The notes under the pieces are model-generated. The model worked only from the letters and a program-made list of their open reading frames with translations. It did no database searches and had not been told where the DNA came from. This document shows positions 49,660 to 57,725 of a stretch of DNA of 64,000 nt, piece after piece. Source of the stretch: a virus (Duplodnaviria > Caudoviricetes); IMG/VR virus record IMGVR_UViG_3300011116_001007, one strand, 5' to 3'. A program made the position numbers and the translations under genes. Positions within the stretch are counted from its first letter, which is position 1. Each line of letters starts with the position of its first letter.

Positions 49660-50551
49660 GAAAGGACTGAGAATACATCCTCTCCAACAACACCTCGGAC
49701 ATTATTGTACACCTTGCGAGTATACTTTCTTCCGACTTCCACCCGGCCCTATTTCTAGGTATCCTGGTCTGCTGTCAGCATCGCCGTTTAGAGACAGGCA
49801 GTAGTCTTGACGCTGTATGCTATTCTACGCTTTCTATTCCGTTGACCTTGCGAGCCATTCAAGTGCGCTAACACCTTACGAAACTTCCTGCATAAACTAA
49901 TGTCACCTTGCGAGCTTCATTAGACTTGGTTCTCTTGCGAGCCAAGTATTAGATGCTTTTCACATACAACCGAGTCAGTCTTTGCGTTTTAATCGTTAGA
50001 AGGAGTTGAACCTTCAGTCTATTTCTTAAAAGGAAATCGGCCTACCATTAGCCTATAACTGAACCTACTGCGATGTGCTGACTCAGTTGCTGCATACTCT
50101 TTTGGAATACACAATACAACACACCACGTACCTTTTGTCTTGCGAACTACTCAGTCGTCTTTTGCGATCGGTGTGTCCCCGCCTTTCGACAGACCCACTA
50201 ACCACTCAAACTGCATACGAGCCCTTGGGTGCAACCCCTCGGACAAATACGCTACCCTTTCTCATACTAATTAACTGGACTGGTTTAGTTGTGAAGTCAG
50301 CACCACCTGTTACTTTCCATCGACTCAAGTTCCCCTTGCGGGCTTGTAAATCAACGTTCTTTCCACAACATCCAGCGTCATTGTTACAACCACCGGTCTT
50401 ATCAGTGATCGCTACCTCACGGTAGTGAGCAGGCTTGCTTAAACGAACTATCTCTAGCGGAGTTATGTAGGCATACCTCCTTTGGCTGTGTCACCACAGT
50501 TATTCTTCATAAACCAGCAAGCTGGCTTATAGGACGTTAAACCGCCCTTGA
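49657..50551 (-). ncRNA. ~900-nt large structured RNA, GOLLD-like candidate
   Basis: No credible CDS; own promoter; six C-GCAA-G tetraloops plus other GNRA loops; 5'/3' helix AAGGGC/GTCCTT; embedded tRNA module. Confidence 0.65.
49992..50062 (-). tRNA. tRNA-Lys(TTT)-like module embedded in the large RNA, no encoded CCA
   Basis: ATTTC-ctTTTaa-GAAAT, GAAGG-ttcaact-CCTTC, D arm with AATGGTA; acceptor stem has a bulge. Confidence 0.6.
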
Positions 50552-50557
50552 AATCTT

Positions 50558-50586
50558 ATTGTAGCATCAAAGTTGATCCTTGTCAA
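50558..50586 (-). promoter_or_regulatory. sigma70 promoter TTGACA-17-TACAAT driving the large RNA
   Basis: -35 50586-50581, -10 50563-50558. Confidence 0.75.
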
Positions 50587-52560: not shown

Positions 52561-52784
52561 AAAATTGTTACACACTCTTGCGAATGTGTGTATTAAAACA
52601 GACTGTATGCTGTGGGAATAACATTTCTGTCAAGCGACCAGCAACGGATACGCAATCTGTTTTAATACGCTCGGATTTTTTTATGTACAAGAACATAAGC
52701 CATCCCCGAGGCCGCCCGTTTGCCCATGTTTTAAGTGCAGGCTAGGTCCACGTTACCTATTCACACTATTCAACTCTACAAAAT

Positions 52785-52814
52785 GAAAAACCCCGGAGTT
52801 TTTAGTTCCGGGGT
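52785..52814 (-). terminator. Intrinsic terminator of attenuator-like unit 1
   Basis: ACCCCGGA/TCCGGGGT stem followed by TTTTC ATTTT. Confidence 0.75.
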
Positions 52815-52839
52815 CCTTTTGGGTATGTCTTGATACTTG

Positions 52840-52965
52840 TTACAGTATATGACTCCTCAAGGACCCGCGGGCTCCTGGAAATGTATTCACGCGACCATAG
52901 CCACGCGCCCAGGTACTTGCCTGATGCATGGGTTTAATCAACAGTGAACAGATTTGCGTTTTCAT
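52840..52965 (-). CDS. 41-aa putative leader peptide 1 (MKTQICSLLIKPMHQASTWARGYGRVNTFPGARGSLRSHIL)
   Basis: ATG 7 nt after the -10 box of promoter 52973-53001; overlaps the antiterminator strand. Confidence 0.5.
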   Translation of the reverse strand: MKTQICSLLIKPMHQASTWARGYGRVNTFPGARGSLRSHIL

Positions 52966-52972
52966 AGTATCA

Positions 52973-53001
52973 ATTATACGTTATATATCTTAAGAAGTCA
53001 A
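52973..53001 (-). promoter_or_regulatory. sigma70 promoter TTGACT-17-TATAAT
   Basis: Near-consensus boxes, exact spacer. Confidence 0.8.
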
Positions 53002-53184: not shown

Positions 53185-53276
53185 TGGCGGAAGACGGAGG
53201 AGTCGAACCCCATCCCTGTTAAGAGAACCTGGTTTTCAAGGCCAGTCGCAGGACCATCCCCGCTGCATCATCTTCC
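53185..53276 (-). tRNA. tRNA-Ser(TGA)
   Basis: ctggc-ctTGAaa-accag, long variable arm, GCCA. Confidence 0.9.
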
Positions 53277-53679: not shown

Positions 53680-53771
53680 TGGGCCTCTGAGAGTGGAATT
53701 GAACCACCAAGGTTTTTGGAACCTTTTTGACCTACTAGTAAGGACGACTTTACCGATTCGTCTACTCAGAG
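53680..53771 (-). tRNA. Degenerate type-II tRNA-like element with central CTA (amber-like) triplet
   Basis: CTCTGAG/CTCAGAG acceptor, GAC-gaatcggtaaa-GTC D arm, loop taCTAgt, AAGGTT/AACCTT variable arm, GGTGG-ttcaatt-CCACT T arm, CCA. Confidence 0.55.
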
Positions 53772-53777
53772 ATAACT

Positions 53778-55041: not shown

Positions 55042-55267
55042 CTCAGAACTGAATCTGAGTACACTATACAAAATCAAATTTTTAACGAACTTGCTGCACT
55101 GTGTCGATGCACTGTGCTGCTTTCTAACTAGTCTCTAGTATAACACCAAGTGCGATACTGGTCAACCGGTTTTGTAAAGCCCTACAATTTGGAAGGACTT
55201 TACAAATCTTGCTGTTTTTCCCTACTTGCCGCTATTGTAGCAGTTGGGCAATTAGTGGTCAACCACC

Positions 55268-56866: not shown

Positions 56867-57124
56867 TTAGAGTTCCTTTAGGTTAATGAAATTTATGCCG
56901 GACATTGTCAGTTCGACGACATGGTGTACTGCGCCTCTCATCACAATTGGATTGTCTCCAATCATAACTGGTGGGAAAATACTGTTCCTGAAACGGTTCG
57001 GTTTTATCCGCTTTTGTTTCATAGTCATCAAGTTGTTTTTTGTCTTGCATACATATATAACGCGGTAGCCCAGCATCACGTTGACACAAGCCAAAAAGAA
57101 ACCCGCCAAAGCGGGTTCTGAATT

Positions 57125-57410
57125 TCTGTTACGAGGTATGTCTTACCCTAAGCGGCGTTTAGGCTGCTAATGCGAACAGTTCGTCGTTTGCGTTTATAGA
57201 TTTTCTTCTTTTTACAAGGTTGCTCTTGTGCTGTCCACTCTGTTACTCTTTACTCTGTCGAAACCAGGGCAGGCCCATCAAAAGAACTATCGACTAACAT
57301 TCCCCCACATACTGCATTTCTGGTGTGGCTAATGCAAAAGTTCTTTTGGTGGACCTGGCGGGAGTCGAACCCGCGTCCAGAACACTTTTCTCTTTGCTTC
57401 ATACAGCAAT
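57125..57410 (-). ncRNA. ssrA: Circularly permuted (two-piece) tmRNA; tag ANDELFALAA at 57159-57191
   Basis: Acceptor piece GCGGG-TTCGACT-CCCGC-CAGGTCC-ACCA (ends 57347) lies upstream of the coding piece starting GGGCCTG...TTCGAC (57276); terminator 57094-57120. Confidence 0.88.
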
Positions 57411-57419
57411 AACTTTTAT

Positions 57420-57725
57420 TTATCGTTGATAGCAATTACGCTCACGGTAAATCTGACCATCCGGCATCTGAATTTCTCTCCACGCTGTGCAAATGGTCTG
57501 GGGTTGTGGTACAATCACTTGCTCACGTTGAACCACAACTGGTTGTGGCTGGTTAGCATTGGCAATTACTGCTCCAGCAATACCACCAATGATCAATGGG
57601 CCAATCCAGTCATTTCTTTGTTCAACAATAACAGGTCGGTTGTCCCAATGTCGATGATCATGACGCCATTGTGCTTGGGCTGCGGTTGCTGCTAGTAATG
57701 CAATTACCAATAATACTTTTTTCAT
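57420..57725 (-). CDS. Secreted/membrane small protein
   Basis: Signal peptide, GGIAGAVIA helix; AGGAG SD. Confidence 0.7.
   Translation of the reverse strand: MKKVLLVIALLAATAAQAQWRHDHRHWDNRPVIVEQRNDWIGPLIIGGIAGAVIANANQPQPVVVQREQVIVPQPQTICTAWREIQMPDGQIYRERNCYQR

Follow-up and report, generated by a model that had tools for sequence, protein, structure and literature searches.

Among the leader-peptide attenuators that control amino acid operons are trpL, hisL, pheL, leuL and thrL of Escherichia coli and Salmonella, as well as the multivalent leader of ilvGMEDA. A second group responds to translation stress and includes the bmrCD and vmlR leaders of Bacillus subtilis, the erm and cat leaders and toiL of E. 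coli. The vmlR leader and tylosin-induced attenuation are treated in two reports (PMC9226507, PMC6851288). Why phages carry transfer RNA (tRNA) genes and when they use them is a long-standing question, and the current ideas include codon compensation and the replacement of tRNAs cut by host defences (for example PMC10264068). Here, we describe an element at positions 52785-53001 of a 64,000-nucleotide (nt) stretch of DNA, referred to as the window, from the Caudoviricetes virus record IMGVR_UViG_3300011116_001007. It comprises a promoter, a short leader open reading frame (ORF-A), an intrinsic terminator and an antiterminator hairpin that shares bases with the terminator, and it is a member of a large family of putative attenuators heading the tRNA arrays of uncultured freshwater giant phages. 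The element probably functions as a ribosome-dependent transcription attenuator, in which fast translation of the leader would lead to termination and slow decoding to read-through. This core interpretation is supported by covariation of the RNA pairings, by an ORF that is kept open and ends inside the antiterminator hairpin, and by the association with tRNA arrays.

An earlier note, made from the sequence of the window alone, had claimed a promoter, an ATG located 7 nt after its -10 box, a 41-codon ORF and a terminator, and all of these parts were found again on re-reading the minus strand, on which all attenuator features of the window lie (Table 1). The ATG at 52965 is separated from the end of the -10 box by these 7 nt only, so that the mRNA should be leaderless or nearly so. 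A recount of the leader peptide agreed with the claimed use of 18 of the 20 amino acids, with Asp and Glu missing; close relatives contain 18 to 20. The terminator stem is formed by the arms ACCCCGGA and TCCGGGGT, which enclose the 9-nt loop ACTAAAAAC and are followed by a T5-C-A-T4 tail reaching 52780; the terminator scan lists it on the plus strand only, because the minus-strand loop exceeds the 8-nt limit of the scanner. The claimed pairing of 8 base pairs (bp) between GGGTCCTT and AAGGACCC, hereafter helix P1, is present and shares four bases (ACCC) with the 5' arm of the terminator. That the two hairpins exclude each other is borne out by the relatives, among which terminator and antiterminator both covary. 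The transcript folds with -61.4 kcal/mol (z = -3.2 versus shuffles); the structure of minimum free energy contains the P1 pairing, and the centroid structure contains the terminator. A further helix, P0, ends about 8 nt before the 5' strand of P1; its 5' strand holds a conserved Trp codon and its 3' strand consists of Pro-Gly codons. As a whole, the observation of the earlier note is confirmed.

The viral contig in IMG/VR that contains the window has a length of 102,964 bp and an estimated completeness of about 30%, which identifies the source as a giant phage. A neighbouring gene was used first to reach related contigs. The relative L006 carries a homologous unit at 69% identity, the ORF of which differs by a 3-nt indel and is preceded by a Shine-Dalgarno leader where the window has a leaderless start; its terminator and its antiterminator both show compensatory changes. 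A terminator-only pattern with 20 fixed bases matched at least 120 viral contigs, and the matches listed comprise 113 distinct sequences; about 100 of these contain GGGTC(C/T) approximately 45 nt upstream, although this motif was absent from the query pattern. A second set, unbiased by the pattern, was anchored on ORF-B, a small ORF located behind the terminator of most members, and yielded 80 loci with 59 distinct upstream regions; the full ORF-B alignment is too diverse, and a sub-alignment served as anchor of the locus scan. Both sets combined comprise at least 179 modules with at least 139 unique leader ORFs from IMG/VR. Conservation of the architecture in related phages, a check proposed in the earlier note, is thus seen in more than 150 related contigs, all of which contain the same module. 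The leader was also found in 157 protein clusters among 5.8 billion proteins, all of them unnamed or "hypothetical" and none with a Pfam domain; likewise, ORF-A has no match in Pfam or PHROGs. Rfam scans of the window and of one majority-class relative gave only sub-threshold chance matches for the leader and the downstream RNA.

The family appears to be confined to uncultured phages. Searches of cultured phages with blastn returned only tRNA matches for the window and no match for a majority-class module, and tblastn with a neighbouring gene gave no match. The nearest cultured relative, judged by one gene, is Ralstonia phage RsoM2USA, which lacks ORF-A and ORF-B. Nine pattern matches were found in 596 gigabases of cellular genomes, three of which are true modules; all three lie in contigs of metagenome-assembled genomes, which are probably mis-binned phage. 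The sequencing runs holding the DNA stem from freshwater, river and lake samples. A neighbouring ORF of 303 residues gave no loci when used as anchor, a 14-base pattern for the downstream RNA was not used as it matched mostly unrelated contigs, and an nhmmer profile run on the 103-kb contig for a second copy of the module matched only the module at 52785-53001. No published description of this leader family was found in the literature.

Both competing RNA structures show covariation. The core of P1 has 6 bp, and Fisher tests were performed on 59 distinct combinations of its strands without correction for phylogeny: position 5 is C-G in 40, U-A in 10, U-G in 7 and C-A in 1 combination (p = 3.6e-6), and position 6 is C-G in 43, U-A in 8 and C-A in 2 (p = 5e-8). 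The unbiased set additionally contains the inserted-pair variant GGGTTCC/GGAACCC and the longer alternatives GGGGTTTCATA/TATGAAACCCC. GGGTCC is read as Gly-Ser in some members and as Arg-Val in others, which places the constraint on the RNA. When 70 majority-class sequences were cut before the 3' arm of the terminator and folded together, the consensus comprised P1, an inner helix in which A-U pairs are replaced by G-C, and the hairpin P2, which covaries throughout the family and always contains the stop codon of ORF-A. Three pairs of the terminator stem covary among 70 relatives. The antiterminator hairpin is transcribed before the terminator and has a median energy of -22.3 kcal/mol versus -12.7 kcal/mol for the terminator; it is the more stable of the two in 66 of 69 representatives. 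The conservation of a terminator that naked RNA would rarely form is explicable only if the antiterminator is removed in some way. Five contigs (L062, L063, L118, L133, L148) serve as a control, as they contain the same terminator after an ordinary gene of about 140 residues; these terminators also carry the conserved loop AYTAAAAAC, and none of the five has GGGTC upstream.

Modules of the family share one order of parts: promoter, ORF-A (33-53 codons), the P1 5' strand GGGTCC, a purine-rich GGAG-like motif, P2, the linker CAAACTTCAAG, the P1 3' strand GGACCC, which is the start of the terminator 5' arm, the terminator and its T-run, ORF-B with a Shine-Dalgarno sequence in most members, a structured RNA of about 190 nt and finally the tRNAs. 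Intrinsic terminator, mutually exclusive antiterminator and a leader ORF overlapping the 5' strand of the antiterminator are all present. A promoter with at least 10 of 12 consensus positions is found within 80 nt of the ATG in 83 of 137 relatives; its -10 box lies 6-11 nt before the ATG in 43 of the 83, and in nearly all remaining promoter-bearing loci the spacing is mostly 39-51 nt and includes a Shine-Dalgarno sequence. Upstream of the same start codon, loci carry either a -10 box at a distance of 6-11 nt or a Shine-Dalgarno leader. Of 138 unique modules, 125 are followed within 1.5 kb by a tRNA gene, most commonly tRNA-Tyr (median distance 431 nt); most modules have no tRNA within 1.5 kb upstream, which shows that the module heads the arrays.

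All 14 tRNAs listed in the earlier note were located, but the first cargo past the terminator is the structured RNA and not a tRNA; in most relatives, a small ORF precedes this RNA. This ORF-B encodes about 53 residues and starts, with its own Shine-Dalgarno sequence, 18-20 nt after the T-run, which leaves no room for a promoter, so that its expression should need read-through. The protein family shows the motif HTLT.EQ..KLI.DK.ERA and is present at L010 11185-11358 and in 70 further loci; in PHROGs it matched only phrog_20536, a family of unknown function, and this weakly, with no match in Pfam and no usable match in the ESM Atlas. The subfamily of the window lacks ORF-B, and the structured RNA directly follows the terminator. 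This RNA was detected by nhmmer in 111 related loci (for example L010 11380-11560), in each case preceded by the terminator or ORF-B and followed by the first tRNA; several of its helices show three to five pair types, the single-stranded motifs GCACUUAAAACAUGG and AAACGGGCGG are invariant, and no match was found in Rfam. In the window, no promoter with at least 10 of 12 consensus positions lies between the terminator and the tRNA block, in a scan to which phage-specific promoters are invisible. The next such promoter downstream on the minus strand is at 50586, in agreement with the earlier note, and the best matches before it reach 9/12 (51312 and 51035). In about one third of the relatives, a consensus TTGACA-16-17 nt-TATAAT promoter ends about 10 nt before the first tRNA, which would thus begin almost at the 5' end of its transcript; examples, counted from the terminator end, are L044 385-414, L073 229-257 and L138 383-412.

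The leader ORF is kept as a frame, whereas its product is not conserved, which is the signature of a cis-acting leader. ORF-A is intact in all 59 relatives of the unbiased set, in which it ends 50-115 nt before ORF-B. Among 70 representatives with less than 85% similarity to each other, the +1 and +2 frames hold stops in 68 and 67 cases, and only 7.5% of shuffled bodies stay open. The stop codon, which is TAA in 65 of 69 representatives, is found 6-33 nt (mostly 20-27 nt) after the start of P1 across all frame variants and at a median of 30 nt (interquartile range 29-32) before the terminator arm. An unlikely alternative is that ORF-A encodes a small trans-acting protein, or that the transcript of about 185 nt is a dual-function small RNA; the terminator would then be leaky punctuation, and P1 would serve RNA stability or translation termination and not regulated read-through. 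Such a gene could account for a conserved ORF that is gene-called in the 157 database clusters, for the strong promoter and conserved terminator loop known from small-RNA genes, and for the use of the same type of terminator behind an ordinary gene elsewhere. However, the entropies of the three codon positions are 1.09, 1.04 and 1.13, and the lack of a third-position excess is unlike a protein under purifying selection. The median pairwise identity of the leaders is only 24%, and they have no fixed positions, yet a complete composition, which is unlike functional proteins. The conserved residues, Trp and Asp-Arg-Thr-Pro-Glu, have near-invariant codons that pair with each other in helix P0, and the RNA constraint suffices to explain them. 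An arrest peptide of the TnaC or SecM type, whose conserved residues act in the ribosome exit tunnel, was considered because of the pattern Trp...Asp...Pro (Trp and Asp-Arg-x-Pro-Glu are near-invariant) and set aside, as the invariant codons pair in P0. Finally, neither protein nor small RNA would explain why P1 competes specifically with the terminator arm and covaries, or why ORF-B lies directly behind the terminator without a promoter.

What is maintained in the leader peptide is its composition. All 20 amino acids occur in 43 of the 70 representatives (median length 47 codons; at least 19 in 61 of 70), in 51 of 59 leaders of the unbiased ORF-B-anchored set and in 66 of 95 independent gene-called database proteins (at least 19 in 93 of 95). 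In random windows of the proteins of this phage, 2.3% are complete, as are 4.1% of stop-free shuffles of the same nucleotides, and ORF-B with its 53 residues contains all 20 in 1 of 68 cases. The rare residues are retained without being fixed in place: Cys occurs in 93% of the representatives and just once in 81%, but is scattered across 29 alignment columns, none of which accounts for more than 14%; for His, found in 99%, the corresponding maximum is 33%. When residues were shuffled within columns, a mean of 6.5 peptides out of 70 (maximum 17) stayed complete, versus the 43 observed. A complete composition despite moving residues indicates selection on completeness and not on sequence. On average, 19.1 different amino acids are encoded upstream of P1 and 18.2 at least 12 nt upstream of it. 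Runs of regulatory codons were not found in the leaders, the composition of which is even and, in 61-86% of the members, complete; the missing runs are a departure from the classical family and not evidence against the mechanism. Matching of codons or amino acids to the tRNAs downstream of the same leader was considered as well and not adopted, the excess being small and probably confounded by relatedness. The remark of the earlier note that the peptide uses 18 of 20 amino acids thus extends to the family, most members of which use all 20, far above chance, as a general decoding sensor would predict. It is an even call whether these pangram leaders keep at least one codon per amino acid within about 47 codons so that a single attenuator can monitor all 20 decodings and induce the tRNA array, the RNA of about 190 nt and the small protein whenever any aminoacyl-tRNA becomes limiting.

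The following mechanism is proposed. A strong promoter would start the transcript with the first codon at or near its 5' end, and ribosomes would translate the 41-codon leader during its transcription. A long irregular hairpin, composed of P1, an inner segment and P2, whose apex carries the stop codon, would take its 5' half from the last third of this leader, and the 3' half of the hairpin would include the first bases of the terminator 5' arm. On naked RNA, the antiterminator should form first and be far more stable, and the polymerase should read through. Helix P0, by its position alone a candidate RNA polymerase pause hairpin, could hold the polymerase until the ribosome arrives, as in trp. 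A ribosome following closely behind the polymerase would occupy or melt the 5' half of the hairpin up to the stop codon, thereby leaving GGACCC free to form the terminator and releasing a transcript of the length given above. If any aminoacyl-tRNA were scarce, the ribosome would lag behind, the antiterminator would form, and transcription would proceed through the structured RNA and the tRNAs, with ORF-B included in most relatives. As the leader samples nearly every amino acid, the switch would report general decoding capacity and feed back on tRNA supply. Possible triggers are the cleavage of tRNAs by host anticodon nucleases, starvation and host shut-off.

Several observations weigh against this interpretation. 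The leader of the window itself lacks Asp and Glu. Stalling would release the antiterminator most clearly at codons at least 12 nt upstream of P1, and the full set of 20 amino acids is encoded there in only 8 of 69 leaders. The amino acids of the leaders match the downstream tRNA set weakly (0.491 versus 0.464). None of the statistics allows for phylogeny, and an anti-antiterminator was not found in the fold analyses. P0 is formed by TTGGT..GCGATT and GATCGY..ACCAG in the majority class and by CCTGG and CCAGG in the window; it ends about 8-15 nt before P1, does not overlap P1 and is supported by conservation and wobble-compatible one-sided changes only, with no double compensatory changes. The claim that the tRNAs need read-through is compatible with the window and fails for 43 of 124 relatives, in which a promoter with at least 10 of 12 consensus positions lies between the terminator and the first tRNA, often abutting the tRNA; the gate is thus not always absolute, and in these relatives it would add to a basal supply instead of controlling it alone. 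Lastly, RNA-library contigs of four lake studies, which extend over the leader and past the terminator, are weak evidence in favour of the proposal; they are assembled, may include DNA and show neither transcript ends nor levels. A contig break at 52964 is no evidence of a start site, because a strain branch point coincides with it. RNA-library contigs from two runs join 52927 to 52819 and omit 107 nt of the leader, which is probably due to a related strain or an assembly effect.

A quite unlikely explanation is antitermination controlled by a factor or ligand, as in a riboswitch, a T-box or a protein-binding leader, in which P0 or internal loops of the antiterminator would bind a tRNA, a metabolite or a phage protein and translation of the ORF would be secondary. 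The strong nucleotide conservation of P0, of the purine-rich GGAG after P1, of the linker CAAACTTCAAG and of the loop AYTAAAAAC would fit this idea, as would the equal entropies of the codon positions. It leaves unexplained, however, why the ORF is open everywhere, why its stop codon is fixed inside the hairpin in any frame and why all 20 amino acids are kept, and no riboswitch or T-box model of Rfam matched.

Very unlikely is the opposite polarity, in which active translation of the leader would promote read-through, for instance by a terminating ribosome that hinders the terminator, and a healthy translation would be the condition for making tRNAs. By the general view, phages express their tRNAs in the course of productive infection, which would agree with this polarity. 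A ribosome at a stop codon covers about 15 nt upstream and 12-15 nt downstream. Measured from the end of the stop codon, GGACCC begins at a median of 25 nt and the terminator stem ends at a median of 52 nt downstream, and a ribosome at the stop would thus sit between the strands of P1, where it covers or splits the antiterminator, and could not reach the terminator; moreover, in naked RNA the antiterminator exceeds the terminator in stability. That short complementarities, which are common, have arisen by chance beside an ordinary promoter, small ORF and terminator in a region dense in promoters and hairpins is hardly conceivable, as more than 130 related sequences, found independently of the pairing, show it again with compensatory changes.

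Table 1. Coordinates of the attenuator module and adjoining features in the window
Feature	Position	Strand	Remark
Upstream promoter, TTGACC-17 nt-TATACT	53168-53140	-	promoter scan
tRNA-Met	53125-53047	-	upstream of leader promoter; common to relative L006
Weak hairpin	53038-53017	-	upstream of leader promoter; common to relative L006
Sigma-70-type promoter, TTGACT-17 nt-TATAAT	53001-52973 (-35 53001-52996; -10 52978-52973)	-	11/12 consensus positions
Leader ORF (ORF-A)	52965-52843; TAA 52842-52840	-	41 codons; 18 different amino acids
Helix P0, CCTGG (52913-52909) with CCAGG (52878-52874)	52874-52913	-	subfamily consensus fold
Antiterminator P1 5' strand, GGGTCCTT	52866-52859	-	leader codons 34-36
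Apical hairpin P2, ATACT/AGTAT	52833-52848	-	leader TAA stop in loop
Antiterminator P1 3' strand, AAGGACCC	52818-52811	-	ACCC shared with terminator 5' arm
Intrinsic terminator	52814-52780; stem 52814-52807/52797-52790	-	8-bp G+C-rich stem, 9-nt loop, T-rich tail
Conserved structured RNA, about 190 nt	52765-52565	-	first cargo past terminator
14-tRNA block: Tyr, Ala, Gln, Phe, Cys, Arg, His, CAT, Trp, Ser, Asn, Thr, Lys, Lys	52560-50677	-	

The module is embedded in a region of the window (43.9-58.6 kb) that contains 34 tRNA genes, a permuted transfer-messenger RNA (tmRNA) of the betaproteobacterial type and a GOLLD RNA, all on the minus strand. The GOLLD RNA (49664-50127; Rfam RF02032, 202 bits versus a threshold of 150) has the promoter at 50586 upstream and an embedded tRNA-Lys-like element (49991-50062). 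The tmRNA (57068-57459) encodes the tag ANDELFALAA, and the tmRNAs of relatives carry other tags; its type suggests a betaproteobacterial host, and together with the bin of one metagenome-assembled genome it points to Betaproteobacteria such as Polynucleobacter. Two tRNA-like elements are located on the minus strand upstream of the module, a tRNA-Sec-like element at 53189-53276 (36.8 bits, below the Rfam threshold of 47) and a long-arm tRNA with the anticodon CTA at 53680-53772, which ARAGORN calls Pyl. A second attenuator-like unit is found at 55449-55268 (minus strand). It consists of a TTGCTT-17 nt-TATAAT promoter, an ATG 5 nt after the -10 box, a 32-codon ORF, a segment GCGGGCCT that pairs with AGACCCGC at 7 of 8 positions, and the terminator CCCGCC/GGCGGG followed by T9; a promoter follows directly at 55262. 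No homology of this unit to the leader family was detected by nhmmer.

If the proposed mechanism is true, a conserved switch couples the transcription of tRNA arrays to ribosome speed, and the tRNA supply of these phages is regulated by demand in a homeostatic manner. The switch would be a direct, testable read-out of tRNA depletion during infection, and a leader with all 20 amino acids might serve as a compact synthetic reporter for decoding capacity. Furthermore, the module marks two elements that are apparently co-regulated with the tRNAs, namely the ORF-B protein family and the strongly covarying RNA of about 190 nt.

The comparison with trp/his-type attenuators, the geometry of which the earlier note had assigned to the element, holds for the proposed switch between exclusive folds by ribosome position but is not strict, as no anti-antiterminator overlapping the antiterminator and no runs of regulatory codons were found. 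Like these systems, the module has a short leader ORF, whose translation we infer, a terminator before the cargo and a ribosome whose position would choose the fold; the antiterminator shares bases with the terminator 5' arm, and P0 is located where a pause hairpin would sit. In contrast to the attenuators of amino acid operons, the cargo consists of a phage structured RNA and tRNAs instead of biosynthetic enzymes, and the leader contains about one copy of each rare amino acid, usually all 20, instead of runs of one to three regulatory amino acids. If confirmed, such a leader would add to the known designs of attenuators a new principle, that of a general instead of an amino acid-specific sensor. 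The trp attenuator depends on competition between the 1:2 and 2:3 pairings, whereas no such counterpart was found in the phage module, which is often leaderless; without anti-antiterminator and regulatory-codon runs, untranslated RNA should read through by default. Among the Rfam leader families, Thr_leader reaches 18 bits (threshold 55) and His_leader 16.7 bits (threshold 49) at 52781-52887, and the Trp, His, Thr and Phe leader models gave no match in one majority-class relative.

The pyrBI attenuator resembles the module in that the outcome depends on the distance between ribosome and polymerase along a leader that ends at the terminator; however, a close ribosome blocks the terminator in pyrBI, which is the opposite polarity, and the signal is polymerase pausing that depends on uridine triphosphate. 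T-box riboswitches likewise report tRNA charging by a decision between antiterminator and terminator, but they bind uncharged tRNA directly via Stem I and the T-box bulge, do not need translation and control synthetase or amino acid genes; no T-box model of Rfam matched the window or one majority-class relative at E-values up to 5. With the bmrCD, vmlR, erm, cat and toiL leaders, the module shares a short leader ORF that, under the proposed mechanism, turns slowed ribosomes into read-through of a downstream terminator or structure without specificity for a single amino acid. These leaders respond to ribosomes stalled by antibiotics at peptide motifs and control resistance genes, whereas the leaders described here have no conserved arrest motif beyond the residues explained by the RNA, are selected for a complete amino acid composition and are followed by a cargo that provides tRNA supply.

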